A stretch of 64,000 nt of DNA from Massalongia carnosa (Eukaryota): positions 1,302,001-1,366,000 of the forward strand of contig OZ287087.1 in assembly GCA_965645245.1 (NCBI GenBank), read 5' to 3'. Shown here piece by piece: positions 8,574-62,385 of this stretch. Each line of letters opens with the position of its first letter. Position 1 is the first letter of the stretch. The notes under the pieces are model-generated. The model worked only from the letters and a program-made list of their open reading frames with translations. It did no database searches and had not been told where the DNA came from. The translations under genes were made by a program, and so were the position numbers.

Positions 8574-10321
8574 TATCGGTCTTGGCAACCTCCGCGCCTC
8601 CGACTGAAACTAGTAAGGAGGCTAATCTTGAGCGGGTTCCTTGTATTAGATATCCGGTCCGTTTGAGGAAGGATCAAGACGAGATACAGGCTTTGATAGA
8701 TTCGGGCAGCGAGGTCAACGCAATGCACCCCGCTTATGCCGCGAAACTAGGGCTTCGTGTTAGGGAAACAGATGTTGGGGCGCAAAAGATTGATAGATCT
8801 CACCTGGATACCTTCGGTATGGTTATCGCAGGGTTCGCGGTCAAGGAGAAGCTAGGGAAGGTTCGATTCTTCCAGGAAACCTTCTTGTTGGCTAATATTA
8901 GCCTGGATGTGGTCCTTGGGATGCCTTTTCTTACACTCAGCAGTGCGGATATACAGTTCGCAGAGCGAGAGCTCGCCTGGAGAACCTACACAGCTGCCGA
9001 GGCTTTACCAACAACCAGACGTGTGGAGATCATCAATAAGGAAGAATTCGCGGCGGCGGTCCTTGGAGGAGACGATGAGGCATATGTGGTGCATGTAATG
9101 GCCGTAAGCAAGCCATCGTCCATGCCGATCCACGCCTCTCGTCAGGCCCAAGTAGCCTCGCTAGTGAGCGAGGAGGCCAAGATCCCCGTTGAATATTCCG
9201 ACTTCTCTGACGTCTTCTCCCCTGACTCCGCAGTAGAGCTACCGGAGCACACCGGCATTAACGACCATCCTATCGACCTAGTAGATGGTAAGCAGCCACC
9301 TTATGGCCCAATCTACAGCCTAGGTCCTGTGGAACTAGAGACACTGAAAACCTATATCGAAACCAACCTAGCCAGCGGTTTTATTAGGCCTTCCCAGTCT
9401 CCGGCTGGTGCTCCGATACTGTTCATCCGCAAGAAGGACGGTAGTCTCCGCCTGTGTGTGGATTATCGAGGACTCAATACCCTGATGATCAAGAATCGGT
9501 ACCCGTTACCCTTGATCGGAGAGTCGCTTGATCGACTAGGCCGTGCCAAGCGATTTACCCATCTGGATCTCACGAATGCGTATCATCGGATGCGAATTCG
9601 AGAAGGTGACGAATGGAAGACGGCCTTCAGGACTCGATATGGCCACTTCGAGTATCAGGTTATGCCCTTCGGCCTTTCCAATTGCCCAGCTAGTTTTCAG
9701 GGCTATATCAACAAAAGTCTAGCAGAGAAACTCGACATCTTCGTCATCGTATACTTAGATGACATCCTGATCTATACCGAGGACTCAGGCCAAGGCCACG
9801 TTGAGGCTGTTAAGTGGGTCTTGGAGAACCTCCGAAAAAACGGACTTTTTGCCAATCTAAAGAAGTGCCGTTTTCATCAGGATGAGGTTCGCTTCCTAGG
9901 CTACGTTGTCTCTGGCCAAGGAATTCGTATGGAAGAGGAAAGGATTGAAGCTGTCAAGAACTGGCCAGAACCCAAGTCAGTACGAGACGTCCAGGTGTTT
10001 ATGGGATTCGCCAACTTCTACCGGCGGTTCATCCGGGGGTTCAGCAAGATTGCTGCTCCACTCACCTCGATGCTCAAAACAAACTTGGTAGCCAACACTG
10101 GGCCATCCCCAAAGGCAAGGCGTGGAGAGGAAGGATCTTGTTTCCTAACTCCTGCCGCTAAGTTAGCCTTTGCCCAATTAAAGCAGGCGTTCACTGAGGC
10201 ACCGATCCTCCGACATTTTGACCCTGAGCGCCACATCCGACTTGAGACGGACGCCTCGGGTTACGCCATAGGTGGCGTTCTTAGCCAGCTGGATATCGAA
10301 ACCGGCCAATGGCACCCAGTA

Positions 10322-12136
10322 ACGTATTTACTAGCCAATCGGGCCAGCTACCCATTCGGGCCACCCACCAAAACCAACACCAAAATTTCAACTTTTTCGC
10401 CTTGCATCTTGTACCACACCACCATGGCCTCATCAAATGAAACCATCATTGATGTTAATAGTTCTGATACTAGAATGGAATTAGCTATCGCTGAGTTGAA
10501 AAGAAATCCTGCTATATCTCAGCGTCAATTAGCTAAGGAGTATAACGTGCCTAGATCTACCCTTCAAGCACGTATTCACGGTCGGAAATCAGCCAAAACC
10601 TATCATGAAGAGTCTCAACGATTATCAGTAATTGAGGAAAGGGCTCTGATTGGCTGGATAGAACAGATGACCGAGTGGGGCTGGCCCCCACGCATACAAC
10701 ATCTAGAAAGCATGGCAAAAAATCTTCTGAATGCGAAGGGCGATAGCGAGCCTTTGGGTCATTGTTGGTATCAGAATTTTTTAAAGAGACACCCTGATTT
10801 CAAGTGCAACCACAGTAGAAATCTGGATCAAGTCCGAAAAGATGCTGGAAACGTTGATATCATAAAAGACTGGTATCAATTATACTCGACTACCCGAACG
10901 AAGTATGGAATAGCCGACGGAGATGTATACAACATGGATGAAAAAGGGTTTGCCATGGGCATCGCCGATAGCTCCAAAGTGTTAGTAAAAGTCACTGAAG
11001 CTGAAGCATTCAACGTCCATTCGGGTAATAGGGACTGGGTTTCAATGATTGAATGTGTTTCATCTTTGGGATCCGTTTTACCAGCTTATTTTATATTTCA
11101 AGGAGTTCGAGTACAGCAAGCCTGGCTAGGTCCTATCAAGGATAATAGGACCACCTTACAAGTCAGTCCCAATGGATGGACCACCAACGAAATAGCACTC
11201 CATTGGCTGAAAGAGGTGTTCGATTTGCATACTCGATACTCGACATACGCAGGGCGTTTATAGACTTCTTATACTCGATGGACACGAAAGTCATGTATCT
11301 ATCGATTTTATGACTTATTGCGAGCAACATAAAATCATACCGCTTTGTTTGCCCCCTCATTCAACTCATCTATTGCAACCTCTGGATGTGGGCGTTTTTT
11401 CACCTCTAGCTAAGGCCTATAAAAAACGGGTAGCAAATCACTCTCGCTATGGGGCCGTCAACGTTTCGAAGATAGATTTTCTAAGTTATATTCAGGAGGC
11501 TAGAAAGGAGGCCATGACTATTATCAACATCAGCTCTGCATGGCGAGGTGCAGGTCTAGTACCACTCGATCCAAATTATGTTCTTGCTAAAGTATCGAGA
11601 TCAAACCCTTTTCCGCGTGATATTAACGCTATCAGTACTCCGAAAACAATCAAGAAAATCAGAGAGACTAGTGAGACCCTTCTACAAAATATAACTCCGT
11701 CTCTTCGAGGGCCTGTTGAACAGCTGAAAATCATAGCTCTTAATGCTATTGCTGATAAAACCATTCTAACACAGTCAAATCAGGAGCTTATTGATAAACA
11801 AAAGACTCGACGTACAAAGCAGTCTAGAAAGGGTTGTGAAAAGGCTAAGGTGCTGACTGTGGGTGCAGCACGTACAATGATGGAAGAAAAGGAGAAGGCG
11901 GCTGAGGCAATAGCCAATCAAAAGGCTAGATATCATGCCTTAAACGGAAAGGTAAAATTTGCGAAAATAGTATATAAAGAGATGGGTATGGATATTGATA
12001 TTTTCATGTAATTATATTGGAAATAGATGATGATAAAATCATGTAATAATGGTTGTTAAGTTGATAAGATGATTTGGTCAAATTTTTGGTGGGGTGGCCC
12101 GACTGGGTAGCTGGCCCGTTTGGCTAGTAAATACGT
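10322..12136 (+). mobile_element. pogo/Fot1-like DNA transposon nested in Gypsy B
   Basis: ~52-bp TIRs ACGTATTTACTAGCCAA.CGGGCCAGCTACCCA...; TA target duplication at 10320-10321 and 12137-12138. Confidence 0.96.
10424..12011 (+). pseudogene. Fot1/pogo DDD transposase with a +1 frameshift near 11258
   Basis: HTH_psq-like YNVPRSTL, CENP-B-like region, YNMDEKGF, (RYR)LLILDGHESH, LQPLDVGVF. An extra T in CGTTTATAGA shifts the frame. Confidence 0.9.
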
Positions 12137-15008: not shown

Positions 15009-17430
15009 TCATGATCTATGTAAAATTTCCCAACATGCCTCCTTTTTGTAACATGGTCCATAGCTCTTACATTGCCATCTGGTCTGACTTGCACGTCGTC
15101 TTTTGGTGCAATTTTCATCAATTTCCGCAAGTGGTCGGCGTCGTTTGAGTCTTGGCACTTGCCTTTTGCAGGCCAAACAATAGTCCTTCTTATTCAAATG
15201 CTCCCATTTGCAAGTTGACTCGACGTCTTTATTAACGTCTTGATTAGTAGTAACTATGACATCTGTCGGACGTTTCCGTAGGGCACCGGCTTGATTGGAT
15301 AGTAGGGCATTTACTATTTCTTTTTGAAAGTCCAAATGGCTGAGTGTTGAATTCGGATACAGAATTCTCCACAATTTGAAGGCATTTAGAACGGCTGCAT
15401 CCAGAAGAAAGATGAAAATTGACCACCAGTAGCGACGATCAGATCTTTGAGGTGAATAATATGCTCTTTGCTGAGCATTCCCATCTGACCCGCCCATGTG
15501 CTGGTTATATTCCACGATGGGCATGGGAAATGGAAGCTTTTCTTCTTCATCATCAACGATGACTCTGGAATTTGCAGGAATTCCGTGACGTCGACGGGAA
15601 TTCTTGTAGAAAGAAGTCTTCAAATCCTCAATTGTATGAACCGTGGTCATGAATTGCACAGTGTTTAAATCCACCCATGCCATACACAGAATGTCCCCGT
15701 CCTCAATGTTTGATTTTTTACTTTTATTTGTAGGTACCGTTATTAATGCCTTCTTTCCGCAGTCCTTATTCTTGGTGGCTGCAACCCTCAGACGTAGAAG
15801 ATGAACAGGAAAACCGCATCCTGATTTAGCTGTCCCACAGGCACCAATTCCAATAGTTTTCAGAGCTTTGAATAGCTTCGTATTTGTGAAGAAGTTGTCC
15901 AGAAAGATGACGTATTTCAAGCCTTCATCAGACGGTAAACTTCGAGCCAGTTGAATGACGACTAGGGAGGAAGGAGACAAATCCCATTTGGTTGTCGGAA
16001 ATTTCAATTGTCCAGGCGTTTTTAACTCACTAATTTTGGACACCTGTCTTGCAATTAGTACGATGCAAATTGAGGCCTTTTCTACTCACCTTGGAGGTAA
16101 ATAAGATAATTTTCCTGACATAAACTATAGATTTTGAAGCCTACACCAGCCGCCTTGGTGGCTATTTGCATAGTATGGCAGCTCCTACCCCTGAATAAAA
16201 TCAATTGCTCGTCAACTGATACATGACTTCCAGGAATCCAGTATTTCTTTGATGCTTTTCGAAAGTCTGTGGCCAATGGTTCCAGCTTTTTCCACCAATC
16301 AGGGCCTCGAGTATCAATGATCTCATCTTCGTCGGGGTTGGATATCTTCAAAAATCGTTTGAGTTGCTCCCATCTTCGAAGACTCATGGCTTGAATCACC
16401 ATGTCATGTATGGCAAATTTAGGAGACGTGTTCCAATAGTCAGTAAGACGTGGCATCAGTATATACCCCATATATAACAGAATTCCCAGAAAAGCTCCTA
16501 CTTCAGAAGAAGAGGTGTCATGCCATTGACGTCTCTTGATGTCGTTTAGGGCATACTTCTTTTTCGCTTTAAGATTGGTGTTTTTAGCTATGATTTCAAG
16601 CATTTCAAAGCTAAAGAAGAGGCAGAATAAACTGAAAGGAGTCTGATTTATTGTGACGAAGCGAGATAGTGAATAGATTTCTACCATTGCGCCACCTGTC
16701 CTTCCCGACCAAAAGGCACAATACTTAGTCCGCAGACCAAGCTCTATTCTACTATAACTGGGTCTCCTGCTATGTTTGCTGTAGGTCCTGCCGTCCGCAC
16801 CACGCTTGGTCGAACCGTTACACTACCGCCCGTCTAGCTGCGGCTAGCCCCTAGCCGCTTCCAGTTATAGTTAGCCCCGAAGAATGGGCTCTTCATAGCG
16901 TACCGCCCTCGCCGATCCGACTTAGAGAGTTTTCATCCAACGCTTTCCCGTTTCGTCCTAGCTTCAGTCCGTCGAAGCAAGGCGAAAAAGCGAGGAACTC
17001 AGGTCAGGAATCGAACTCACGACTAGTACACCGATTGATGACTAAGTATTCTGTGACGAAGCGAGATAGTGAATAGATTTCTACCATTGCGCCACCTGTC
17101 CTTCCCGACCAAAAGGCACAATACTTAGTCCGCAGACCAAGCTCTATTCTACTATAACTGGGTCTCCTGCTATGTTTGCTGTAGGTCCTGCCGTCCGCAC
17201 CACGCTTGGTCGAACCGTTACATTTATCAAGCGCAACGTCTCGTCCGGCTGTGGTTTCGAAATGGGATCGAAATTGGACAATAATTTGATGACGGAGGGG
17301 GCATGGAGTCAATTATGCTTTGTACGCTGGGTTTATTCTTTTTGGCCTGTTCTTTCAGAATTGAGGGGGGCAAAGCGTCTGATTGGTCAGGAACTTCTAT
17401 CTCAATGCCTCTCATGATTATTCTAAACAA
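15009..17430 (-). pseudogene. piggyBac-like (DDE_Tnp_1_7-type) transposase; TRIM insertion, frameshift near 16100 and a 46-nt intron at 16044-16089
   Basis: VSVDEQLILFRGR, FLDNFFT, YNQHMGGSD, Cys-rich C-terminus; intron GTGAGT...TACTAAT...CAG. Confidence 0.88.
16652..17222 (-). mobile_element. TRIM (terminal-repeat retrotransposon in miniature), 571 bp, non-coding
   Basis: Identical 171-bp LTRs at 16652-16822 and 17052-17222 (TG...CA), 229-bp internal region, 5-bp TSD TTTAT. Orientation inferred from the self-priming PBS at 17040-17050. Confidence 0.93.
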
Positions 17431-33920: not shown

Positions 33921-36900
33921 ATGAGTGAAAAAATCTCTGGGTCGGGGTCCTATAGCGCTATTGATAGGATCCCTAAGCTAGTGGACCACGAGGGTTATCC
34001 AGCATGGAAGCGAGCCATGCGGGATTGCCTCAAAATGATAGATCTTTGGATCTATTGTGATAACACCCAAGCTGCACCACGCCCCAACGCTCCCAATGAT
34101 GGCTTCAACAAATGGAAAAAGGGCCAAGATAAGGCCTGCACTGCTCTTTGATTAGCTTGTGAAGGAAATGCCTACACCGATATAGAAGACCATACTACTG
34201 CTTCCGTCGCCTGGGACCTGCTTGAGTCAAACTATAAGCCTCGCGGTTCGGGATTCCTCAATGACACCTTCAGAAAATTAGACAGCCTTATCCTATCGGA
34301 TTGCAGCAGCCCTGCAGACTACGTTACCCAATTTCGCGCCACGGTCAATAAGCTTCGCACCTTCTCAAGCAAGCTAAGCCTGGACGAAAACTAGCTTATC
34401 TATAGCTTCCATACCAATTTAGGCTTCGAATACAACAGCTATTTCGAACGATACGCTCATAATCATGATCCTTTTAATGAAATGGGTGAACCCAAGCACA
34501 CGTTAAGTCAGGCTATGCAGCATTTCCAAAACACTGTGACCAACCCAAGCAAGTCCAGCGATAAGGCCGTAATCGCAATGGCAGCTGTTTCAAACGCTCA
34601 AACCCAAGCAGGAGCACAATCCGGAACAGCCCATTCTCGAATCATCACCAAGACCATCAATTACTGCAACTTGTGCCGAAAGGACTATCACGTAGAGAGC
34701 GAGTGTCGTGAAAAATATCCACACCTCGTTAACCAAGACTCACAGCGTAAGTCCAATAAGCGTCGCAGGAATTCCAAAAGTCAACGTCAAAGTCAAAAGC
34801 CAACCGGAAACAATGACTCAACCAATGGAGTCTTCTGCGCCTACATGGCTACCGCGGATATAACTAAAATATCTAAGCTCTGGATCTGTGACTCTGGAAC
34901 TTGCCAACATATTACCCATGATCGCTCCATCTTCACCTCATTCAAGAAATCCGATTGCCCACCAATTCAAGGTATTGGAGGAGTATTAATTCCCAAAGGA
35001 ATAGTTAACGTCATGTTGCGGTGTGCCGGTAACGAGGGTCTTCGGGAGTTCCCTCTTTTCGATGTGTTATACGTTCCGGACGGAGGCCTAAATCTCATCT
35101 CCCAAGGACAATTACATCGAGATGGATGTCCCCTGAAGATCGTACCAGAGGGAATTGAAATCGGGAACTATGGTATCACCGCTCGCCGCCAGGACAACAA
35201 TCTGTATATCCTGAACATGTGGAACGTCTCTGAAACCGCTCTCGCTCTCGCTGCAATTAATAGCGACACGATAAAAATGTGGCACGCTCGTTTAGGCCAT
35301 CTTGGAACTCAAAACATTCTCAAGCTCGCTGGCATGTCAAAAGGAATGGACCTCACCAAGCCCCCGCCCCAAGACGCCTGTCCTCCGTGCGCCATCGCTC
35401 AGTCCCAAGTAGAACCATACCGGGCCCCCATCCAACTAGGCAAGCACCCGCTGGACTTAATTCACAGCGATGTCCAAGGACCTTTCCCAGAAGCCTTGAA
35501 CGGCGCCAAATATATGGTGACCTTTCTTTGCGATTTCGATAAAGAGTCACACGTCACCTTACTGCGCGTCAAAAGCGGAATCCTTCAAGCATTTAAAAAC
35601 TACAAGAAGCAAAATGAATACGAGGACAAACGAATTAAGCGTTTGCGATCGGACTGTGGGGGTGAGTATGACTCCAAGGACTTCGAGAATTTCAGAAACG
35701 AGCATGGCATTCAGTGGGAACCTACCGTACCGGGAAATCCACCCATGAACGGGACAGCCGAGCGCCTAGGTCAAACGCTTCACAATTTAGCCAGCACCAT
35801 GCGAGAAGGCGCTAAACTCGACATCAAATATTGGGCTGCGATGGTTCTCACTGCCAACTACCTAAGAAATCGACAACCAACTGCGGGACGCTCCATCACC
35901 CCTTACGAGTCTCACACCGGCAGCCCACCAGAACTAGGACATCTAAGGATAATAGGACAGACTGGCTATGCGCAAAATCGCAAGCCCTCCACCGGATGGA
36001 AGAAATTTCAGGAACGAGCCACCAATGTACTTTAGTGGGATACGAAGGCGATCACATCTATCGAATGATAAATCCAGAGGGTGCGGTCATGCGTTATTCC
36101 AATGTTCAGTGGATGGATAACAATCCCCCAACTCCTCCTTCCTTATCATTCTCTCAAACTAAAAGAGCCCTACATGTTGGACAGTCAGGACCGCCCACAA
36201 GAAAGCAAAAAATTACCCATCATACGGACGCCCCTCATACGGACCTATTCGACGCTCATGAATCCATAGAATCAATTCCCACTGGACCTCCCCCATCAAA
36301 CGCTGGACATGAGGCATAGGCAAACCAACGACACATTGAGCCTCGGTCCCAGGCAGATATTCTCTCTAAGCACCCAAAACTTCGTGCCCCCTCGCCTGAC
36401 CCACTAGCTCTCTTGGCTCTTCTTGCTCGAGCCAATGACCCGGAGCCATACGAGCCTAAAACCTATAAACAGGCCGTAGACAGTCGAGAGGAATAGAATT
36501 GGCGAAGGGCAATGCAGGAAGAAATTGACTCTATCAACGAAAATGATACCTGGATCCTCACCTCCCTGCCCCCGGACCGCAAAGCCCTGCGAGGCAAATG
36601 GGTTTATAAAATCAAACGAGGCCCGGCTGGCGAGATTCTTCGTTACAAGGCTCGATGGGTTGTTAGTGGCTTTGAGCATCGTGATGGCATTGACTACAAT
36701 GAGACTTTTGCTTCAGTAATGAAGCCAATGAGCTATAAAGCCATCTTCGCTATCGCTGCAGCCAATGACTGGGAAATCCACCAAAAGGACGTAAAAACAG
36801 CCTTCTTGTACGGAAGGGTGGACGAGGAAATCTACGTGGAGCAACCAACCGGTCTGGATGACGGGTCAACGAGAGTTTGCAAGTTGAAGAAAGCTCTTTA

Positions 36901-38050
36901 TGGCCTGAAACAGTCGTCTAGAATCTGGTATGAAACGATCACTACTTTTTTCAAGTCTTATGAATTCGTTCCAATCAACGCCGACCTTAGCGTTTTCGTT
37001 AAAGAAGGGGTTGTCGTAGCCATTTACGTCGATGATTTAATCATCACTGGCTCTTCTTCTTCCGAGATACAACGTGTCAAGAATCTGCTGAGCGACGAGT
37101 TCTCGATAGTTGATTTAGGCCCTATCAATTACTACCTGGGCATGACGATAACTTGGGATCGGGCTAATAGGATTCCTCGCCTTGGTCAGCAGGCCTATCT
37201 GGAAAAAGTACTACGCGACCATGGCATGTGGGACACTAACCCCGTAGCTACCCCGATAGATGGGCGACTGTAGGCTGCACCAGAGGGCCATCAGGCCACA
37301 GATGACTCTCGCCTCCGCTACCAATCAGCGGTGGGCTCTCTCATGTATGCTATGCTAGGCACCAGGCCTGACTTAGCCTACGCCGTATCGGTGGTCAGCC
37401 GCTATGCCTCTAACCCAACCGACACGCACTAGAAGGAAGTCAAATGCATCTTTCGATACATCAAGGGCACTCTTCCGTTGCAGTTAACATACAAAGGTCA
37501 CTTACAACCCTTGAACGGTTTCACTGATGCGGATAGGGCCGGAGATCATCATACCCGAAGGTCTACCCCTGGCTTCGTGTTTAATGTGGGTAGTGGCGCT
37601 ATTAGCTGGTCTTCCAAACGACAACCGACCGTAGCCCTATCTTCTTGCGAAGCTGAGTACATGGGTCAGACTCAAGCCACCAAGGAAGCCGTCTGGTTGT
37701 CTAGTCCTCTCGACCTACTTTCAGCACCTCAAGTCCCTGGGAATCACTCTCTCCAAACCTAGAGAACCTCTGTAGCCCTTGCCTGCTTGCCTACATCTTT
37801 CGCCCTAAATGCTATCATCATTCACTGCGACAATCAAGGAGCAATGACTTTGGCCAAAAATCCCCAGGCACACGCGCTGAGCAAGGATATTGACATCCAA
37901 TGGCACTGCCAATACCAAAGAGAGAAGATCGAATACAAATCAGTGGAATTTCGCTATGTTCCTACCGAAGAGCAGGTAGCTGACGGCCTAACCAAGGCCC
38001 TACCAAAGGACAAATATGTTGTCTTTCGAAAGGCTTTAGGCTTAGAGTAA
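33921..38050 (+). pseudogene. Copia Gag-Pol with multiple stops and frameshifts
   Basis: CNLCRKDYHVESEC, WICDSG, WHARLGH, LRSDCGGEY, YKARWV, DVKTAFL, IYVDDL, SSCEAEY, ADGLTK. Confidence 0.93.
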
Positions 38051-41859: not shown

Positions 41860-44800
41860 GCCGTTGATTAGCCTGCAATGTAGAATGATGTGTTTGGCTG
41901 TCTGCTTCTGCTATCCGCACGAGCAGGCCGGGGTAATAACGCCCGGTACCCGACGATTGAACAGGAAGTTTGCCAAGCCTATTTTTTCGGTGCGGATTTG
42001 CGTGGTTAGCGCGCTTTCCGCTTTCATCAGGTTGTTGTGAATCTTCAGTCTCGTCCTACTGAGAGATCCCAACTGTGCCTCTGTCGGGCGGGGAATGCGG
42101 TTCTGGTACGTCTTCAATTTGGAGTCCCAGCGTTCCTTGATGCGTTCTGTGATGGCCTTTGTGTGTTTCTCTATGGTATGGCGTGTCGTGGTGCATTTTT
42201 CGAGGTGCGCCGGGTCGGGTGTAGACCAGGGCGGGGGCGATGGGGGCATTGTGACTGGTGCCTCGTTATTCAACATTTTGCTGGCCAATTCGTATTTCAA
42301 CTCTCCTGGGGTGAGGTGTTGCGTTCTTTTGCGTCCTGCCTTACCCCGTAGCTTGTTCGCTATTGTGTTGCAGGCTTTGGAAATCAGTTTCGCCTGCCCT
42401 GCAGCCCGTAGACGATACCTTGCTTTTATCTGTAGATTGTCCAGATGCAACTCCATGGGGGCGATGAACGTTTCCGCTTCGAGAACTTCGACGGGTGTTG
42501 CCTTGAACGCCCCTATCACGGTGCGTAAGCATTTGTTCTGCATGACGCTGAGTTTGGACGTGGTGGCCTTGTTTTTCTTGATTTCCCTGGGTGTGTGCCA
42601 CACGGTGCTTCCATAAGTCATTGCCGGGCGAACGACGGCGGTGTAAACCTGCCGGGCCTTCGCGAAAGAAGCTCCCCAGGTGGATGTCGAAATTTTTGTG
42701 AGCGCCAGCGACTGCGACGTCATCTTTTCCTGTGTTTTCCGTATGTGGGCTCCCCATTTCAATTTGGTGTCGATTTGGAGGCCCAGAACTCGTATGTCCG
42801 TTTTCGGTTCTATTAGGTTGTTTTCTATTTGAATAGTAGCCGACATGTCGAATTTCTTTGGATTTCTGGACAAATGAATGAGCTCATATTTATCCGGTGC
42901 AAATACGGACCCGTGGCGTGCCGCCCATAGTTCGCATTTTCTGTGAATTCTTTCGAGGGTTCTGCACTTTTCTGTTACAGCGCCGCCGTATAAGGCTGAT
43001 AATTACTAAGCCTGATGACTCAGCGGTGCTGAACACAGTCATACATACTATAGTCAGGTCAAGCGATGACTAATGGGACGGGACAGAAGGTCTGAGCCCA
43101 CGGAGGAACGTCCGCCCTTAGTTGGCATAGTTTGCAGAGTACTGAAGAAACTCGACCTCGACTATTCCCACTGATCTATATAATATGGTGTTAGGCCCAC
43201 CTAGATAGATCATCTTACAATTTAACTACTCCGTACTAAATTGTTCTACTCTTAACCCACTACACTACTCCTAGTCCAGAGTCACTCTAACATTTTCTTC
43301 CGTGCTCTTGCCGTATGCCAACACATTTACGTCGTCTACAAATCCTAACGCGCTCGTGTTTGTGCCGGGTCTCTCGCATATCTCTAAAAGGTCCGTATTG
43401 TAGAACAGGTAGAGAATAGGGGAAATGGGTGAGCCTTGAGGAATGCCCGTGCGCACCGCGAACTCCTCGGTTACTCGCCGATTTATCGTTAGTGTGGTTC
43501 TTCTTTCCTTCAGAAAGCTTGCCGTCCAGTCTGTGATCCATTTCGGGATTTTCCTTTTTCGCAGATTGTGTATCAGCCTGCGATGAGACACTGTGTCGAA
43601 TGCGCCTGCTACATCCATGCTGAGGAGAGTTGCCACCTTATTGTTGCCTTGTCCCCATACAGTGTGTACCTGTTCGGTGAGGAGTTCGAGCGCAGACTCG
43701 GTAGATCGGGCACGCCGAGCGCCCATTTGTGTGTCCGGCAGGAGACGGTGCTGTTCCGCTATATAAGTAATCTTCCTTGCGATGACTGCTTCTAATACCT
43801 TACCCATTGTGTTCAGTAAAGCTATGGGTCTGTATGCCTTTGGACTGGTATTGTATTTCTTTCCCGGTTTTCTGAGCGTGATCGTGTTTGCTCTTTTGAA
43901 CTCGTGGGGATGATACGCATGCGTGACGCAAGCCTGAAATAAAGGGGTTAGCAACTCTGCTAGCTTTGTGGAGCATGCCTTGAGAATTCTGTTGGTGATC
44001 CCGTCAGGGCCCGGAGCCTTGTCGGACTTAAGACGTTGTATGTTTGCGATCACTTCATAATTTGTGATTGTCATGCGGCAATCCGCGGCGGCGGGGTAGA
44101 ACGACCCGGGTATGTCGCTCAAGTCGGCCGGCGGGGGGGGGGGGAAAGAATTTGGCTTTCAGCATTTCCGCTTTTTCTTCGAACGTCTCCGCTGTTTGCC
44201 CTTCGTGCCTCAATGGCGGCATTTTCGGTATCTCGCGGGGCTTCTGACTCTTGTCTTTTGCCCATCTTGCTAGCTTCCATATGCCTAACGGCGACTCGGT
44301 GGCTTTGCTTATCTCTTTGCGAAATGAGAGCGTTTTTGCTTTTTGGATTATCTTTTGCTTCTTGTCGTTGGAATTCATATATGCCTTCCAGTCGTCTAAG
44401 TGGCGCGATGACGACCAGAAGCGGCGCAATTTGTGAGTCTTGCGGGTGGCGCGGTTGCATTCTTCGTTCCAAAAGGGTTTCGCATATTCGCTGGGTCTGG
44501 CCCAGGGGACGGAGGCGGTTATGATTTTCTGCAGGAACTCTTGAATTGTCTGGGCGTACTGATCTATTTCTGCGGTTGAGCGGGGGTGGGTCACGGGCGG
44601 GGCGTTGCTTTCAGCCTCCCTCAATTTCTCCATGTTCAGCAGCTTCCATGCTCTGCGCTTTACTTTCGTTAGCTGTTCACTCCCGAGAAGAATGCGAGTG
44701 GATATCGGAATGTGATCAGAGGATTGATTCATTTCCGGTCTTGACATGCAGTGTTCCAGTCTTTCCGCCAGAAATTCCGACATGAATACTAGATCTATAG

Positions 44801-45395
44801 TGCTAAAAGAGTTCCGGGCCTCCCACGTGACGGTTCCTTTGGGCAGCGTCAGTGAGAGGTCAAATTCTTCTACTATATTCAATAACTGATCTGCGGCTGC
44901 GTGTTGTGTTGGCCTTGTGATTCCATTCCAAAAGGGGTGGTGAAGATTGAAGTCGCCGAGAAGAACGTGCTGTGCGTCTGCGGCAAGCTGCTGGCGTACG
45001 ACGGGGAGTGTGGACGGGCTGTCTGTGGATGAATAAGAGGACGGGGACGGGTTGTACACGTTATGAATGTGCAGCACTTTTGTAACCCCATCGGTACACA
45101 CGTTCAATTTCAACGTGCATAGATCTGCGGTAGGGAATTCTACTTCCCAGCTTTCCGGGTCTATTTTCTCGTTAACGTAAAAACATACGCGTGTGTCACC
45201 GCCGGGACGATACAGGAGGTGAAATCCACTTTGATGTGAGCTGAGCGTTGTGGGAGCGTGCGTGCTCCGCCACGGTTCCTGTATTGCTATTACATCGTAG
45301 TCCTGCGTGTTTAAATCTGCCAAAAGTGGAATCATTGTGCTTACTCGATCATTTCTGACGTTGTACTGTAGTATAATGGAGTTTATGTCCTTCAT
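41860..45395 (-). pseudogene. LINE ORF2 (endonuclease-RT); frameshift in the G-run at ~44133-44144, solo-LTR insertion, late stop
   Basis: LQYNV, IAIQEPW, GDFNLHH, SDHIPI; KAPGPDG, YRPIALL, GIPQGSPISP, FVDD; CSCG...HIILHC. Confidence 0.92.
42973..43292. repeat. Solo LTR (320 bp) in the LINE 1 RT
   Basis: TGTTA...TAACA with TSD TTTTC. Removing it restores TEEKCRTLERIH. Confidence 0.9.
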
Positions 45396-52492: not shown

Positions 52493-54453
52493 GATACGTA
52501 TACAGAATCGATTCAAAAAGTCCTACAAAATGTCATCAATGCAGCCGTTCCATTGGCGAAACCTAGCGAATATGCTGAGCCTTTTTGGATAGAAGAATGC
52601 AATATTGCCATCAAAGCCACTCGATAATTACGCCGCATATGGTCTGACATACATGATCCAGCGGACTGGTCCAACTACATGAAATCTAATGACAAGAAAC
52701 AGAAAATTATCCAAAAAGCAAAGAGGACAAATTTTCGTCAAGAGATCAGTAAGGCTGCCGACAGGCCTTAGGGTCTGTAGCGGCTAGCGAAATGGGCTAA
52801 AGACAAAAGTTACTCAGCTAGATAATTACCCAAAATGCCGACTTTAAAGTTCAATTATAAAATAGCAGACAAGTTTGATGAGGAATCCAAAATGCTGAAA
52901 AGCATTTTCTTTCCCGCACCACTACCGGCCGACTTAAGCGATATAGAGGGATCCTTCTATCCAACATCGCCGCACTGTGCAATAATTATCACCAGGTCAG
53001 TATCGAAGGCCCTGCATCGGCTCAAGCCCGATAAAGCACCGGGTCCTGACGGCATATCTAATAGAGTACTCAATTCATACGCGGAAAAACTTGTTAAACT
53101 ATTAATACCTCTGTTTCAGGCGTGCGTTACACTTTCGTACCATCCCCGAGCTATCAAAATGGTAAACACAATAGCATTAAGAATAATAGCCAAAGGAAAT
53201 TACACTACTCCAATGGCTTACCGACCAATTGCATTACTCAACACGATCAGCAAAGTAATAGAATCTATTATATGATCAAAAATAACCTATTTAGCGGAAA
53301 CATATCGGCTCCTACCCGAGAAACAGATAGGAGCGAGGAAGTGCAGATGTACAGAATCAGCTCTAGAGTTGTTAACCGAACAGGTTCACACGATTTAGGG
53401 ACAAGGAAAAGATAAAGTAGCCACACTTTTAAGCATGGACGTCGCCGGCGCGTTTTATATAGTTTCACATCATAGACTAATGCACAATCTACGTAAAAGA
53501 AAAATCCCGAAATAGATTACTGATTGGTTAAACAGCTTTTTAAATGATCGTAGCACAACTCTAGCTATAAATCGAAAAGCGTCGCGGTGAGAACTGGCAT
53601 ACAATAGGGCTCCCCTCTCTCATCAATCTTTTATCTATTCTATAATGAAGACCTATTGGAAATATGTGAGCGACCAGGCACAAACATAAGTAACATAGGA
53701 TTTGTAGACTATGCTAAAATTTTGGCGTATGGAAAAAGCACCGAAGAGAATTGCAAGACTTTAGAGTCAATACAGACAATGCGAAAAGTGGGCTTCACGA
53801 CACGGATCTCTTGTCACTGATTACAACGCTCTAACCTCAGGCAACATATGACGTAGTGCTATTTACCTTATGTTGAAATAGGTATATGACTATGGCTATA
53901 TGGCTATGATAAAAATGGTATGTATGACCGTGATGTTAAGGATGAAGAGTGCTATTCAGCAGTCTTTGTCCCATAACTGGTCACCCTCTGCTAAGCGAGG
54001 TGATAAGATTATCTGAGCTGATCTTATCTAATCTCCAGGCTAAGCCTAATACGGCATCTACGGTTTCTGTAGGTGCTCTCTCCATCTTGGGCAGTCGTAG
54101 GTGCTATGTTCATTGAACTGGTAGGTGTTCACTGTACTGGTAGGAGTTGAATATCCAATACCTTATCCAACCGAAAACGGATTTAGCACTGCTTGTAGCG
54201 ACATTATTAACACGCGTGGTACAGTCGACTGCAAAAGGTTGGTCGCGACCCTGAATTTGGGACCACACATCAAATATTTATGCGAAAATGGCAAAATGCC
54301 GGCAAAAATCTGAAAACTACCCTCACCGCCTACATGCCAATGAAGTCGTACTACTGGTCAGTATTGAAGCGACTTGTAGATTAGTATATGTAGATGCCAA
54401 TCCCCGTCTTTTTTCCCTCCCCCCTCTGCCATTCCCCATTTTTTATCTCAGAT

Positions 54454-56603
54454 ATGAAACTTCGTGAACCGAGAGCAAAAAGATCAAATTCCGGCCCCCC
54501 CCCGGCTGGAAAAGAGCCTTTCAAAGGTAAGAGAATCAAAGTGACTTTGGGAGGGCCGAGAGCCAGAGCCATTGTCGCCGCCGGCATCGATGAAGCCTCG
54601 CCGGAATCGACGTCGGCCCCTCCCAAGCCAAAGCCTCCCCTCAAGTCAAAGCCCCCCTTCAAGCCAAAGGCCCCCCTCAAGCCAAAGGCCCCTCCCAAGC
54701 CAAAGGTCTCTCCCAAGCCAAAGGCCCCTCCCAAGTCAAAGGTCCCGCCTCAGCAGTCAAAGACTTTCGAATCGAATTATTATAGTCCCCTTGTCATTAC
54801 GGAGGATTCCTCCGACGACTGGACGGATGAAGACGAGAAGCAGAGGTGGCAGGGTCAGTGGAGAAAGGAGAACGCGATGAAAGCTGTAGATGCCGAAGAT
54901 GATGCCGAAGATGATTCCGAAGATGATGCCGAAGATGATGTCGAAGATCTCAATGTGCCTAGTAACTCGATTGTCAGTAAGAAGTCTAGAAAACCAAGAA
55001 GAAAGGAACCCTCCCGTTTATCCCCTTCGCCACTGCCTCCGACGGTAATCAAATATCTACTAAATGTGAAGATGTCGTATGAGAAGCACGTCGTTTTCGA
55101 GACGGTGATTCCATACGAAGTCAATTCAACTACGTCGAAAAGATTCTTTTTGAGAAGCTACACCGGGGCCATGAGTTTGAAAGCCGAGACGTATGCGAAT
55201 TCCAAAATGTATGCTTGTCATTTGGTCGAATCAAAGCGACCGTGTTATGGAATTGAATCAAACCGCATGAAAAATCAGCTCTCATGTTGATCGAATCCTG
55301 GCAGCCCATTGAGGAGGTTCTAATTCATTTAGAAGACAGCAGCATTCGAAAGAAAAGCTTCGCGGTTGATCTTATTTTCAACTTCAGTCGTACCAAAGAT
55401 GGCGTCATTCCTCCCGATGATCCTATTGCTGCTGCCACAGCTGTCGCCACCAAGAAATTGGGAACCGCGACCATGAAGCTGCAAAAAGAGATGGAGGAAC
55501 GAGCAATGTTGCAAGGCATGACGGCCGAAAGAATGTCCGAATTGCAAAGTCTGCATCTCTGTGAAAAACGCGCATGTAGGAATTTCGGACAGTACTGTTG
55601 GAATGATGAGACGAAGAATCAGCATTATCCTCTCAACAGTGCTCATTTCGTGACCTGGAATAAAGCACTAGATGATGGAATTTCAGGCGTTGATTCTCGA
55701 ACACCTCCACCGAAGATCAGAGAGAATTTATTCTCCCTGAATAAAGGTAAGAAAAAGACTGAATCATCATCTCCAAAATAGGAAACCTCGTCTCAGGAAA
55801 TGCTCTTTGGAGGTGGGCATTCCATTTATCAACATCCCATGTATCAACACCACTCGTACCTAAACCCCCACTCGACATTTCCCCCCTCGTCATTGGCATT
55901 CCCCTCGACATTTCCCTCGGCATTCCCCTCGGCATTTCCTCCCTCGGCATTTTATCCTTCTCAGTATGCTCCTTCTACATTACCTGACTCGAGACGAGCC
56001 CGTGAGGAAACGCCGTTGGATTGGAGAGATTCGAGATCATCCAGAAGCAGTCGAAGCGTGAGTCGATTTCTCCCTCTCCCCTCCGTCGCCCGCAGCAGTC
56101 CAGTGGAAGAAGATCTGGAAGACTATGTCAGTTGGCTCGTTCAAATGAAGCCTCATTTGAAAGGAGTGCTCACCAACGCCTGCGATCGATTGATGGAAGG
56201 TGGGTACGATCTGATGACCGTTCAATCCTTGAAAGGCATCGAGTATCAGACGTTCTGGCAGGAACTAGGAATTCCTCCGGGAATCGGGATTCAACTGGCG
56301 CGAGACGTCAGTAAATTTGGAAGAGAAATGTCTCGGCAAATGCCTTTGCAAATGTCTCGACAAATGTCTCGACAGATATGTCAGCAAATGCCCCCGCCTC
56401 CCCCTCGGCGTCAACGCCATTTACCGACATCGCAAATGGCCACTCAGGCGGTCACTCAGGCGGTCACTCGGGTGGATAAGGGGATGGAGGATGGGGAGGT
56501 GGACGGGGGCGGGGAGGTAGGATCTGGAGTGAGAGATACAATTGAGGAAGATGAGACGCATAGTCTAGAATACGATTATGCCGAAGATGAAGATGAGGAT
56601 TAG
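54454..56603 (+). pseudogene. Accessory (cargo) gene of the Tc1-like element, ~700 aa when joined
   Basis: Three consecutive ORF blocks: a frame change (frameshift or intron) near 55280 and an in-frame TAG at 55779. PKPK repeats, acidic tract, HLC..RAC....YCW....H motif, SAM-like ELGIPPGIG segment. Confidence 0.7.
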
Positions 56604-56618
56604 ATACTATGTATCTAA

Positions 56619-57663
56619 TCAGATTGAAATGGTTGGATACTGAATGCCAGCCAATCTAAATAAATTTCCCGGGTCTCCCATTCTCAGATCTTTGACTGCA
56701 TCCCGAAGAAATTGTCCGAATCCCCCATACTCCTCCGTGTACGAAAGACTCATTTCTCCATTCCGTCGAATCCATGCCTTTAGCAATGCAAACGACGTTT
56801 CAATTGGATTGAAATCTGGAGAATAAGGAGGTAGTCGTGCCAAGGTGACGTTGGCTGTCTCGCACATCTGAATAAGCTCCTGATTCCAATGAATGCTGGC
56901 ATTATCTAGTACTAAAACAGATCTAGGACCTCCATTGGCAGTCGTCTGAGGAAGAACCTGATTTCGAACGAAGTCGTTGAAAATTTCGGCAGTTATGGAG
57001 CCCTGATGCACCTCCCAAGCTATATAGCCATCGACGGTAAATGCAGGAAGAATGCTCCATCTCTTTGACCTTTTCAAATCCTGAATCATGATTGGAGGGA
57101 CGCCTGCCTGAGCCCATCCGTATCGTCGGTCACCTAGTCAGAAAGTCAGAAAAATGACGAAGATGGGATGAAAGATGAGATAGGAAATAACCGGTTCTTT
57201 CGCAAGCTGCACTTTCGTCCAAAAAGATCAATTGCTCTGCAGTCCATTCTCCGAGTCTCTGCATCCATCCATCTCGAAGGCCTTGATTTCTTTGAGCTGC
57301 TTGTTTGATCACCTTCTTTCGATTCCAACCAAGCCTTTTTAGGGCACGACCAACGGTGGTCTCATCTGCAGATATCTGAAATTCGTCCCAAATGAACCAG
57401 CACATTTCATCCAGATAGGCATGCGGACGTTGCTCCAGATATTTCAGAAGTTCAATCTCATGAAATTGACTGAGTTTACGAGGGCGATGTCCAATTGACA
57501 ATTGAGGTAGAACCACATCTCCAAAATGAGTCCAATTACGTCTCATTCGTTGAATCTGTCTGATGCCAACACCAGTGACAGATGCAATTGTCTTATTGCT
57601 GTCACCTCGTACAAAACGAAGCGTGATTGTCTCACGAAGGGTCTCACTGAGAGGGGGGGGCAT
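56619..57663 (-). CDS. DD34E Tc1/IS630-family transposase, two exons (intron 57134-57191), 328 aa, apparently intact
   Basis: HTH region, IFLDES, VLDNASIH, LPPYSPDFNPIE with 34 residues between D and E; the GT...CTGAC...TAG intron gives ERTG|DRRYGW in frame. Confidence 0.92.
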
Positions 57664-58872
57664 TTTGGGAAAATGGCAGAGGAGAGAGGGAAAAAAGACG
57701 GGGAATGGCATCTACATATACTAATCTACAAGTCGCTTCAATACTGACCAGTAGTACGACTTCATTGGCATGTAGGCGGTGAGGGTAGTTATTCGGATTT
57801 TTGCCGGCATTTTGCCATTTTCGCGTAAATATTTGATGTGTGGTCCCAAATTCAGGGTCGCGACCAACCTTTTGCAGTCGACTGTATGAGCAGTTCAACG
57901 ACGGTGATGAAACCTGCATTAGACTTAGCACGGATATGAGTGTTTATTAACCGGCGATCTGTACATAGCTTTCTTTCTTCATCTTACTAGTTTTCGTACA
58001 TAGTCCCTATTAGATTTCTATCTAGGTCGACGTGCTACATCTCAATTCGCTCCTACAAAGTACGAACTTATTCACTTGTCTAGAAATCCCAAAAGATTCA
58101 ATATGGCTACATCTATCAACATTGCAAGTACCAAAATTGAACCAAAAACGGACATTAGAGTCTTAGGATTGCAAATCGACACCAAATTGAAATGGGGACC
58201 GCACGTTCGTAAAACGCAAAAGGAAATAGTTAAACAATCCATAGCATTGACAAAAATCTCCACATCAACTTGGGGTGCCACCTTCACTAAAGCAAGGCAA
58301 GTTTACAGCGCCGTAGTGCGTCCGGTCATGACATACGGGTCAACCGTATGGCACATGCCCAAAGAAGTCAAAAACGTCAAAAACGTCAACGAGCAAGCTC
58401 TCCGTTATGCAAAACAACTGCCTTCGCACCATAGCCGGTGCCTTTAAAGCCACTCCCATTCCAGTTCTTGAAGTAGAGACATACATAGCACCCATAGATA
58501 TACACCTCGACACGCTACAGGCGCAGGCCAGATATCGACTCCGAGCTGGAGGTTAATCGAAGGTCATATCTTCCGCATGCAGCAAATTAGTTAACAAACT
58601 CCGAGGCAAGGCAGGTCGCAAATGCCTTCAAAAATCCACTCTTGGAGAGCTGAAGCATATCTGGGCCAAAAACCTACTGATCGACGCAAAAATCGTTCAA
58701 CTACCCAAAGCACACTCACCATGGTCCGACCCCTCCCCAGCGCATCTCCGCGAAGTTTCCGTAGCAGCGTTGGCTCGTCAAAAAAAAAATGCAGACAATT
58801 AAATCACGACAGTTGAAAATCTGGAACGACTTGTAGAGCGCATATCAAAATCGCGTCGCCGAATCCTCCATA

Positions 58873-60778
58873 ATCGTGCCACGCCTCACCCCCTAGCGGG
58901 GGTGCTGGCCACCCAAATGACGTACACCACCCATATGACGTTTTTTTCGATTTTTGACTTCAACTCTTCAACGATCACCATTCAACAACACAATGCCTAC
59001 CAATTATGAAGAATTGGAGCATCATATTCAGGATGCCCTGGATGCTATTGGCGATGGCGAATACCGCTTTGCAACCGATGCTGCCGTCGCATTCAACGTC
59101 AAAGTCAGAACTCTTCAGAGACGCATTGCTGGAACCCATACTTCCTTCTTTGAACGTGAGCCTCATGGTCATGCTCTAACTGACGATCAAAGAGGTGCAA
59201 TAGTCATATATTTGACAAGACTGGATAAACTATCGATTTCTGCGCGCATCAGGCATCTGCGGGGTGCAGCAAATTACCTTCTTGCTCAGGCGAATCCTGT
59301 CGATCCTCCCCGAGTCGGACAGCACTGGCCAGCACGATTTCTAGCTCAGCACCCTCAATTTCATAGGAGGAAGCAGACACCTCTTGCAGTCGAAAGGAAG
59401 ACTTCCCTTACAAACGATGTTGCAAAGGCTTACTTCCATGAATTTCGTCAAATTTGTCACGAGAAGGGGATCGGACCCGAAGATATTTGGAACATGGACG
59501 AGTCAGGCTTTCGGATAGGCGTTGGCAGGGGTCATACTGTCATCACATTGCTTGCCAAAGGTCCTGTTCGTGTTACTGATCCGGGTGTACGTGATCTGAT
59601 CAGTGACGTTGAAAATATTAGTGGTGGAGGAGCGACGATCCCTCCGATGCTCATCGTGCCCGGAGTTTATATTCTAAATAAATGGGTGCAAGAAAACGAC
59701 CTCGACGACGATATACTGCTTGCTACTACTTCCTCTGGGTATTCCGATGATGTTAAGGCTTATGAGTAGATACAGCACTTTGAAAAACATAGTCGGAAGA
59801 CTCAGGTAGGTGGCTGGAGACTCCTTATCATGGACAATTATGGATCTCATCTTACATACGAATTTATTGAGTACTGCAATCACAAGAATATCATCTTGTT
59901 CGGTCTTCCCCCGTATTCTACACATGTTACTCAGCCATTGGATGTGGGAATATTTCAGCCCATGAAGCACTATCATTCCGATGTAATTGACGATGCTGTT
60001 CGACTCGGGAGCGATAATTTCAACAAACAAGACTTTTTTGCCGCTTTCACAGACATGCGAGCAAAGGCCTTTACTAGATCAAATATTCTATCGGCCTTCG
60101 AACACACTGGTCTAATTCCTTACTCACCTAAGATAGTGCTAGATAAAATAAGTGGCTGGCAACCCCCTTCAAAGGAGCCAACTCCGGACCCTTTCGGCTC
60201 GTCACCATCCTTTCAAGGTACTCCACATGGTCCTAAGCAGTTGTTTAGACGCGGAAGGGAGTTACAAAGAGGTCTAGAAGACTTTTATCTGCCCGAGGAT
60301 CGTCGTAAAAAGATGGATCAATATTTAAAGGGGTCGCTCGAAGCTGCGAATTCGCTAGCGTTGGCGGAGCGAGACATTGCAGCCACTCAAAATCATCACA
60401 AACAACGCTCAAAAAGAGAAGCACTAGATGGATCGCTTGCTCAAAAGGGCGGTGTATAACTGTGGGCGACGCAAGAGGAAAAATTAAGGCCTGGAGGATA
60501 GAGAAAGTGGCTAAGCATAATAGAGCGAAGGAGCGGCAAGAGAGGATCGATGCAAATGCACGAAATAAGTGGAATAAACAGTGCGCCCAAGGCTTCAAAT
60601 TGATAGGTAAGAAAGCTGATCAGTGGATCAACACCTGGATAGAGTTATTAGACATAGAATATGAGGATGGGGCTACTTTTGAGGAGGTAATAGAACTTTT
60701 TAATTAAAAACGTCATATGGGTGGTGTACGTCATTTGGGTGGCCAGCACCCCCGCTAGGGGGTGAGGCGTGGCACGAT
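58873..60778 (+). mobile_element. pogo/Fot1-like DNA transposon with 73-bp TIRs
   Basis: ATCGTGCCACGCCTCACCCCCTAGCGG... perfectly inverted at both ends; TA duplication. Confidence 0.96.
58993..60707 (+). pseudogene. pogo DDD transposase with a premature stop (59767) and a frameshift (~60455)
   Basis: WNMDESGF, MDNYGSH, LPPYSTHVTQPLDVG. Confidence 0.9.
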
Positions 60779-62385
60779 TAGCGCAATTAGTCCCACTAAG
60801 CAAAAAACGACTAAAAATACAGACGCTGTTAAAAAAGGCAGAAAGCACCCTGACAACACAGATCCGCACCGGTAAGATCGGTCTAGCTGACTTCCTCTAC
60901 CAGCGATGGGTCCCCGCCGTCACCTCACCGGCCTACCCATGTGGCTGGCACAGACAAACTCCAGAACACGAAATTATGCTCTGTAGACTTATTGACAATA
61001 GATAAAAGATGCTTCGCGCCGCTGGCACGAACAACTATCAACAGCTGACCTAAACATCAAAAACTCTAAAGATATTAAGTACTTGGCTAATGAAAACAGG
61101 TCTACTGACCCAATTCTCACTGGCATCTATACTATTGTACAATTAAAAGTAGTTTCACTTCTCTTTTTCTTCATATCTCACAAGGCGTCACAGTTCTAAC
61201 ATTATTTTCGCTCTGCGTCTCCTGTCCGACGTCGACTCGGTGTCACATCGGACAGGTATCAAGGGATATGGTTTTTACACCTGAAAAAGGTTTTCCATAT
61301 AACATAACTTAGATAGCTTTGCCCGCATGGGCCGGCCTACGGCCGGTGACATATCGGAGTATGAATACATCATTATCATCAGCATAGAAACACATCTTAA
61401 AATAGTTTAGTGTCATAACCTTAGGTTGAATACACATAATTAATAAATAGAAAAAAAAAATCGGAGTGCATATTTTTTTGAGGTTCAAGTCCTTTCTAGC
61501 ACTTATTTTCTGAAAATTTTGCATTTTGACACGGGCATGGTGTGGATTTGACACTGGTTGACCTCCATGGATCACGAAACGAATAAAAAGAGTTCAACGG
61601 AACTTCGTCAATATTGTTCTCGAAGACCTCGTTAATATTTTCATAGGCCTCGTTAACAACGTTCGATCATACTCTTAAAGATTTTAGTCTTGTCATTCAG
61701 TCATCGGCTGAGAGCTAGAGACATACGACACGGGTCAGCTATGTCTATCACACGGGTCTCCTTCGTCTACAACTCGGAGACCTCCGGCTGAAACAAATAA
61801 AACATTTAGAGACATAGAGTGGGGTCACACCCTGCACGAAGCAAGAGATTTGGGGTTTGAAAACTATCATATTGATAGCTACCATGAGCAACACGGCCCG
61901 AACCGGGGTCGCACTAGGGATAGTAAAGGCAATCTACCTTAAGGGCGGTTGGGGGTATTCGGACATGGTCTTGAGATGGTCTCAAGATATTATCCACTAG
62001 AACGTTCTTGTCTTAGTCTATCTACATATTGATTTCGTCATTCAAGAAAGCAAATAGTGTTCAGATATTTTGTTTTCAAGACAATCTCGTGACTTTGTTA
62101 TATGTAAGATATCTTATGACGTGGAATGCATGTTTCTAACAACATCATCTCAGGACGATCTTCGTTTGAAGAATTTCATCAGATTAGCTCAAGATTCTTT
62201 TGAATCAGGAGTGCTTTGAAACAGTGTGATATTTGGTTGACAAGATTTCAAGTACCAGTCTGTGTTAGAGCCAAGTGCAAGCAAAACATTTTCTTCGGTC
62301 AAGCTATGAGAAGCTAAATACGATTGCACCAACAACTTCAAGCAAAACATCTTTTCTTCATACCAGTACAAAAAAAGGAAAGCGT

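Follow-up and report, generated by a model that had tools for sequence, protein, structure and literature searches.

The 64,000-nucleotide stretch of Massalongia carnosa contig OZ287087.1 analysed here (assembly GCA_965645245.1, positions 1,302,001 to 1,366,000; hereafter the window) contains, at 54222-57884 (3663 bp), a fungal Tc1-like element of the cut-and-paste type with a DD34E/DDE_3 transposase. Two convergent genes lie between its long terminal inverted repeats (TIRs): the transposase gene on the minus strand and, on the plus strand, a second gene, referred to below as gene 2. We consider it likely that the element belongs to a lineage of fungal Tc1-like transposons built from two convergent genes, a transposase and a partner of 600-800 residues, enclosed by long TIRs, with the partner serving as a helper that is supplied in trans. 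Contigs from three public sequencing runs (X1, X2 and X3) were aligned to the region. The features of the element are given below in order of position, with the evidence for each in brackets.

54220..54221, unstranded: left copy of the target-site duplication, TA (sequence and empty-site contigs of X2 and X3)
54222..54433, plus strand: left TIR, 212 nt, beginning CAGTCGAC (repeat alignment)
54454..56603, plus strand: gene 2, evidently a pseudogene, ~716 codons if read through (open reading frames (ORFs), homologues and lesions)
55040..55412, plus strand, approximate, mapped from residues 51-174 of the relative P0004: predicted PB1-like beta-grasp (AlphaFold model)
55229..55230, plus strand: lesion 1 of gene 2, a 1-bp deletion, GAT ATC read as GA-ATC, which shifts the frame (homologues; extra T in X1-X3)
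55254..55256, plus strand: lesion 2 of gene 2, an in-frame TGA where relatives have Gly (WNGIK) (sibling proteins and tblastn)
55560..55658, plus strand: C-x4-C-x6-C-x8-H motif and a conserved Trp (invariant in 16 of 16 diverse members)
55779..55781, plus strand: lesion 3 of gene 2, an in-frame TAG where relatives have Gln (CAG) (relatives; T>C at 55779 in X1-X3)
56094..56321, plus strand: invariant SSP motif and, after it, a five-helix SAM-like domain (GYDL..Q, GI.PGIG..LA) (alignment, models and Atlas)
56604..56618, unstranded: 15-nt spacer between the convergent stop codons (ORF positions)
56619..57133, minus strand: transposase exon 2 with the stop codon, the second D and the E of DD34E (ORFs, Pfam and alignment)
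57134..57191, minus strand: transposase intron, 58 nt, GTTATT...CTGACTAG, GT..AG (sequence and homologue exon ends)
57192..57663, minus strand: transposase exon 1, helix-turn-helix (HTH) region for binding DNA, and the first D (ORFs, Pfam and homologue alignment)
57672..57884, minus strand: right TIR, 213 nt (repeat alignment)
57885..57886, unstranded: right copy of the target-site duplication, TA (sequence and empty-site contigs)

Gene 2 travels with the transposase gene, both among sibling copies and in a relative that has diverged. Among siblings, the gene-2/transposase junction is spanned by contigs of X1 (55230-57715) and X3 (55689-56798), the X1 piece showing 15 letter differences to the window over 2.5 kb, along with a 15-nt insertion. 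The protein collection holds 13 ORFs at least 90% identical to gene 2, located on at least 10 distinct contigs (0.23-3.8 Mb). At greater distance, a metagenome locus scan with alignment A3 returned four loci, and both true ones (L001 and L002) carry the two-gene layout: a plus-strand relative of gene 2, ~37% identical to that of the window (hidden Markov model (HMM) E 1e-34 to 1e-39), followed directly by a minus-strand transposase relative, ~56% identical (tblastn E 1e-41 to 1e-67). The transposase exons of L001 are separated at the same position as the window intron, and its TIRs, at 4240-4385 (146 nt) and 7669-7808 (140 nt), have the ATGs 3 and 43 nt from their inner edges; a comparison of the window TIRs with those of L001 gave no meaningful similarity (best local score 17). 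The sequence-only reading that preceded this analysis had claimed a two-gene family and suggested asking whether gene-2 homologues adjoin DDE_3 transposases. The claim finds backing in L001 and L002, which show the same convergent layout between TIRs of their own, and in the sibling contigs, which keep both genes.

A further 26 gene-2 relatives were compared with the 120 listed transposase relatives. Four come from the same source and from a contig of identical size as one of the latter (P0014/P0176, 4066 bp; P0023/P0180, 10484 bp; P0043/P0191, 50441 bp; P0090/P0257, 3180 bp), where a rough estimate of the chance expectation for such pairs is well under one. Thirteen of the contig sizes seen for gene-2 relatives fall at 3.2-4.6 kb, approximately one element. 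The linkage data support the view that gene 2 moves with the element and defines a two-gene Tc1-like lineage. The two remaining loci of the scan (L003 and L004) were pattern-only false matches, lacking an HMM match and carrying bacterial-looking ORFs. Searches of genome-contig and viral-contig collections returned no relative, and a profile word search with alignment A2 returned P0006 as its sole match. L001 (5557-5559) and L002 (2504-2506) have in common an in-frame stop within the gene-2 Cys/His motif, at the conserved C(W/Y) position, and the two loci cease to align upstream of L001 position 4657.

The element is inserted at a TA dinucleotide in the manner of Tc1 transposons, with termini TA/CAGTCGAC...GTCGACTG/TA. 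Its TIRs are 97.2% identical over 213 aligned columns (6 mismatches and one indel across ~210 nt, base by base) and are the sole inverted-repeat pair of their kind in the window, where no further TIR copy was found; the only repeat inside the TIR is TA(C/G)ATGCCAAT, at TIR positions 110 and 170. An empty site is present in contigs of X2 (depth 4103) and X3 (depth 92.8), in which 54218 is joined to 57884: 3665 nt are absent, the joint shares 3 letters and a single TA is left. The element is a Tc1-family transposon by every character tested: a TA duplication, TIRs, a DDE_3 domain with DD34E spacing and an N-terminal HTH. The family looks young, because the transposase is intact, sibling contigs are ~99% identical and the empty site occurs in related samples.

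The transposase gene reads as intact in the window copy. Splicing of its single intron yields a protein of 328 residues, free of stops and full length relative to its homologues, five of which (full-length, 326-369 aa) match it from its ATG (57663) as far as residue 157/158 (57190), pick up again at 57134 and continue to the transposase stop. The protein matches DDE_3 (PF13358; E 1.6e-22, 80.4 bits, cut-off 28.6) and HTH_33 (E 7.5e-6, 25.9 bits, cut-off 25), with matches to HTH_32 and HTH_23 below their cut-offs. Across 88 aligned relatives (A7), residues D148, D234 and E269 hardly vary, giving the DD34E signature, and the window protein has the same residues. Among the 120 listed transposase relatives are representatives from Ascomycota and Basidiomycota, and DDE-3 proteins of Pyrenophora tritici-repentis are ~50% identical to the window transposase. 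TIRs of ~215 bp, a TA duplication and an intact, spliced minus-strand DD34E transposase had all been put forward by the sequence-only reading, and each of these holds.

Gene 2, by contrast with the ~700-residue plus-strand gene of that reading, is evidently dead in the window copy through three mutations: it is indeed a long non-transposase gene, but it is neither continuous nor spliceable here. The coding region is broken into three ORFs (54454-55290, 55284-55781 and 55800-56603). By tblastn the frame changes between 55229 and 55230 and a TGA stands in frame at 55254, and six relatives, aligned to a read-through query, cross both ORF junctions uninterrupted (HLVDIKATVLWNGIKPHEKSALMLIES and SSPKQETSSQE). 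The site of lesion 2 is Gly in all six sibling proteins that cover it (WNGIKP, against WN-stop-IKP in the window). Contigs of X1, X2 and X3 all carry an additional T behind 55229 and a C, not a T, at 55779; two of the three lesions are hence missing from the contigs of all three runs that cross them. From the homologue read-through and the run contigs we therefore read gene 2 as a pseudogene with three lesions. Introns joining the three ORFs were considered as an alternative (30 frame-compatible GT..AG pairs exist) and were rejected, given that both junctions are crossed by homologues in which the residues there are conserved.

Several smaller features of gene 2 were recorded. A run of nine C lies near its start (54495-54503), where the sibling ORF P0168, which starts in another frame at GTG 54466 of the window, has seven; because of this reading the true N-terminus is uncertain, and the run is perhaps variable or mis-assembled. 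Coding tandem repeats occupy 54597-54764, 54889-54948, 55895-55940 and 56323-56390, with units of 18 nt (PKPKAP), 12 nt (DAED) and 12 nt (FPSA and SRQM). Insertion polymorphisms of 15 nt occur at 55927 (X1) and at 55940 (X2 and X3).

At the protein level, gene 2 belongs to an undescribed, constrained fungal family for which a beta-grasp like that of PB1, an invariant C-C-C-H motif and a SAM-like domain at the C-terminus are predicted. The gene-2 profile recovers 455 cluster representatives at E<=1e-3 (133 at E<=1e-10) from among 1.84 billion, and many family members are 600-800 aa long. Named relatives include Brigantiaea leucoxantha and Pyrenula sp. (metagenome-assembled genomes of lichen fungi) and Polyplosphaeria fusca. 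Neither gene 2 nor any of 30 relatives has a Pfam family. In 16 diverse members (~22% mean identity), a basic N-terminus and long low-complexity linkers are common to all, the C, C, C, H and W residues and the SSP motif are the same in every one of the 16, and the C-terminal block reads GYDL..Q....W..LGI.PGIG..LA. Of the six members of a subfamily 56% identical to the window type, three have an intact ORF of 584 aa; identity between this subfamily and the window type is 79% in the SAM-like block and ~50% in the linkers. Approximately 20 of the 150 listed representatives (P0104, P0112, P0121 and others) are only 220-236 aa long and match just the Cys/His region and the SAM-like domain.

The domain assignments draw on AlphaFold models made from alignments. 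Residues 51-174 of P0004 are modelled as a beta-grasp (predicted local distance difference test (pLDDT) ~90), with a long helix and the Cys/His knuckle behind it. VIA-align ranks PB1 chains first for the beta-grasp (4mjs_A, Z 6.6, root-mean-square deviation (rmsd) 3.1 over 85 residues; 2npt_A, Z 6.1; NBR1, Z 5.6). The C-terminal five-helix domain (pLDDT >95) is matched first by SAM chains, led by SARM1 (Z 6.6, rmsd 2.5 over 63 residues), with SAM matches at Z 5-6.6; helix-hairpin-helix (HhH) domains of NusA and RAD51 score close to SAM. Atlas gives a weak lead to SAM (0.79), and the SAM families of Pfam (PF00536/PF07647) match 1 of 82 members, at E 0.0044, with none above the cut-off.

Turning to expression, the candidate start codons had been said to lie near the inner TIR edges, and they do: the gene-2 ATG (54454) is 20 nt inside the left edge and the transposase ATG (57663) 8 nt inside the right. 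These distances are so short that a promoter inside the element would have to be located in the TIRs. In the left TIR a TATATG box occupies 54385-54390 and an ATG stands at 54394, and a CT-rich tract is present as well; in each TIR a TATATG box stands ~65 nt upstream, with a CT-rich tract just before the ATG; the sense-strand CT fractions in the two TIRs are 0.80 and 0.73. CT-rich tracts mark fungal core promoters. From this arrangement we infer that each TIR holds an inward promoter. The near-identical N-terminal extensions read from the TIRs, MPIPVFFPS and MPFPVFFPS, are likewise confirmed, starting at in-frame upstream ATGs in both repeats (54394 and 57711), and the two window genes could share a leader MP(I/F)PVFFPS. 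The leader is not conserved, because the L001 TIR carries ATGCCGTAG at 4350-4358 instead, a two-codon upstream ORF. At the other end of both genes, transcripts must overlap or end inside the opposite gene because the stops are 15 nt apart.

We propose the following scheme for the two-gene element. As in MuDR of maize, a promoter in each TIR would point inward and both genes would thereby be co-expressed, and the convergent transcripts would end in or beyond the 15-nt gap, antisense to each other. The partner protein, produced from intact copies and acting in trans, may be a nuclear, self-associating scaffold or helper; a nuclear scaffold is suggested because of the basic N-terminus, the two modules of a self-association type and the zinc knuckle. 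Its most likely role would be to help assemble or target the transposition complex on TIRs or chromatin. Supply of the partner in trans would explain the persistence of copies whose transposase is good and whose partner gene is dead.

Several observations weigh against this scheme. The partner gene is dead in the window copy, and no demonstrably complete two-gene copy was found among the copies examined. The sequence-only reading had proposed checking whether other copies keep an intact second ORF: siblings do keep gene 2 beside the transposase, but the 13 near-identical sibling ORFs are 138-536 aa long and none reaches full length (~716 aa). ORFs in the protein collection may be shortened by homopolymer errors, and some of the sibling truncations do lie in homopolymer runs and are possible assembly errors. 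L001 and L002 are decayed as well, with two transposase stops and with a stop and a frameshift in gene 2. No match in contig size to a listed transposase relative was found for 22 of the 26 further gene-2 relatives, and the family includes short (~225-aa) forms. Divergence is much quicker in gene 2 (23-37% identity) than in the transposase (39-58%), and pairwise distances of the two genes are uncorrelated over five elements (rho 0.25, p 0.49), in a comparison that used a 329-aa transposase join with one extra Gly codon (the true length being 328 aa). With respect to the folds, Foldseek against the PDB returned nothing at E<=1e-3 for either model (best E 0.018 for the beta-grasp and ~2 for the SAM-like domain, with SAM chains first in the list for the latter), and the fold matches are middling (Z <8). 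Finally, the sides of the empty-site joints are short, at 25 and 29 letters, and the flanks in which the joints fall are high-depth repeats.

Some of these points would sit well with gene 2 being passive cargo, a host gene captured once between TIRs by transduplication and of no use to the element. This is how Manning et al. interpret a two-ORF Tc1/Mariner element of Pyrenophora tritici-repentis in the account given in PMC3538342, and the death of gene 2 in the window copy and in many siblings, together with its faster evolution, points the same way. We nevertheless regard cargo as unlikely. The linkage and the convergent layout persist at ~37% (gene 2) and 56% (transposase) identity, between elements whose TIR sequences are unrelated, and in both lineages the gene-2 start codon lies at the TIR edge. 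The domain architecture and the C-C-C-H and SSP residues are invariant in 16 members at ~22% identity, and no single-copy host parent was identified. Still less would we expect gene 2 to be the product of nesting, in which an ordinary one-gene Tc1 had received an unrelated gene or element. Nested transposons abound in the window, which speaks for this idea, but no second repeat pair or duplication brackets gene 2, its ATG abuts the TIR, and the same order and orientation recur in L001, L002 and the sibling contigs; such an artefact is very improbable.

The partner could also act against the host, as an anti-silencing or anti-RIP (repeat-induced point mutation) factor, and not as a cofactor of transposition. 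VANC of the Arabidopsis VANDAL elements, an anti-silencing-type protein, would be the model. The fast divergence of gene 2 and its long, disordered, repeat-rich linkers would suit such a factor, and modules of the PB1-like and SAM-like kinds are characteristic of scaffolds in chromatin and signalling. That the window is a dense transposon graveyard speaks against it, and no feature sets an anti-host role apart from a cofactor role; we think an anti-host function improbable and retain the helper supplied in trans as the preferred reading.

Long TIRs are known from Tc1 subgroups of the Minos and Sleeping Beauty type (inverted repeat/direct repeat, IR/DR), in which each TIR holds two transposase-binding direct repeats. 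Outside the superfamily, PIF/Harbinger elements, with a Harbinger-type DDE transposase, a 3-bp duplication and a needed Myb-like (Myb/SANT) partner, provide a functional model for an element-encoded cofactor. The window element differs from them in its DDE_3 transposase, its TA duplication and its PB1-like/C-C-C-H/SAM-like partner, and Pfam found no Myb match in gene 2 or its relatives. Mutator elements have a MULE (Mutator-like element) transposase and a 9-bp duplication; they too differ from the window element, with its DDE_3 transposase and TA duplication, and mudrB is unrelated to gene 2. The likeness to MuDR lies in the convergent two-gene layout and the long TIRs. In the description given in PMC3440606, the ~215-bp TIRs of maize MuDR contain the promoters and start sites of the convergent genes mudrA (transposase) and mudrB (a helper of unknown function), and antisense transcripts arise by read-through between the two; TIR promoters are thus shown for MuDR and only inferred for the window element.

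Among fungal Tc1 elements, the named examples include impala (PMC7325037) and Molly and Pixie, reported as repeat families of 1862 and 1845 bp (PMC3017866). Compared with these, the window element is twice as long and has a second conserved, convergent gene and TIRs of ~212 bp. The closest precedent is the 3.4-kb Tc1/Mariner element of P. tritici-repentis, of similar size and with a second coding region between its TIRs, for which 46 copies, 31 of them with both coding regions, and transcripts mapping to the element are described (Manning et al. 2013, PMC3538342). The same report mentions a similar tandem pair in Alternaria and, from a match of the second ORF to Osmo_CC (PF08946), interprets that ORF as captured host sequence; the comparison with gene 2 is by description only. 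Osmo_CC was found neither in 30 members of the gene-2 family (E<=0.01) nor among 25 of the 53 families for 82 members (E<=1).

Dici1 and Dici2 of the yeast Diutina catenulata, reported in 2026, are ~4-kb fungal IS630-Tc1-mariner (ITm) elements with a TA duplication, DD34E and more than one coding sequence (CDS) (PMC13469147). Their TIRs begin CAGTCGGT, against CAGTCGAC in the window element. As presented in that report, they differ further in their short TIRs (8-33 bp) and in having three CDSs in another order (a 143-aa protein of unknown nature, a 477-aa transposase and a relic transposase), with no PB1/C-C-C-H/SAM partner among the proteins described; fungal elements related to Dici are given there as having a single CDS. 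The premise of the sequence-only reading that fungal Tc1/mariner elements carry only a transposase accordingly needs some qualification in view of the two-ORF Pyrenophora element (PMC3538342) and the three-CDS Dici elements (PMC13469147). The ciliate TBE and Tec elements also belong to the Tc1/mariner superfamily and have several ORFs, Tec with very long TIRs, yet according to the description in PMC7325037 they are ciliate-specific and their additional ORFs encode a recombinase, a zinc-finger protein and similar products. In the literature covered, which excluded Repbase reports and subscription papers, neither this partner family nor a conserved two-gene clade of fungal Tc1 elements was found described.

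A broader and more tentative proposal, which we hold possible but on balance doubt, is that a widespread, unnamed clade of fungal Tc1-like elements forms a true two-component system, in which the transposase would depend on the PB1-like/C-C-C-H/SAM-like partner, a dedicated protein that associates with itself, and both genes would be driven inward by one and the same promoter, present in each long TIR. Its MuDR-like design would have arisen independently within the Tc1/mariner superfamily, and the Pyrenophora "transduplication" would be a member rather than a gene capture. Tc1/mariner elements, with their two ends and a single gene, are the textbook case of a minimal transposon and the basis of tools such as Sleeping Beauty. 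If a lineage has kept a constrained second gene over deep divergence, this superfamily can evolve helper-dependent two-component systems like those of Harbinger and MuDR, a fungal protein family of 455 cluster representatives without annotation would gain a function, and the published transduplication case would be re-read. The young-looking element family described here would be a good entry point.

With respect to the surroundings of the element, the window as a whole is a transposon nest, containing within positions 1-50000 a Ty3/Gypsy pol (130-3867), a piggyBac-like DDE_Tnp_1_7 gene (15009-16687), a Copia element (34482-37273) and a long interspersed nuclear element (LINE) endonuclease/reverse transcriptase (43271-45395). 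Within the nest, an 846-aa ORF (8723-11263) runs from RVT_1/RNase H in frame into a pogo-type HTH and DDE_1, a nested insertion that is read through. A separate DNA transposon (58871-60780) lies 1 kb downstream of the element; it is bounded by perfect 75-nt inverted repeats (58871-58945 and 60706-60780) and contains ORFs at 58993-59769 and 59830-60459, the latter matching DDE_1 (pogo/Fot1-type). The flanks of the element (53222-54166 and 57887-58884) are high-depth repeats, reaching 12472 in X1 against ~380 inside the element. Where the flanks differ from the run contigs, the window mostly shows T or A against C or G in the contigs (X1: T>C 35, A>G 23; C>T 6, G>A 7), a substitution bias in a RIP-like direction. 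Identity to the run contigs is ~99.4% in the element and 93-96% in the flanks.

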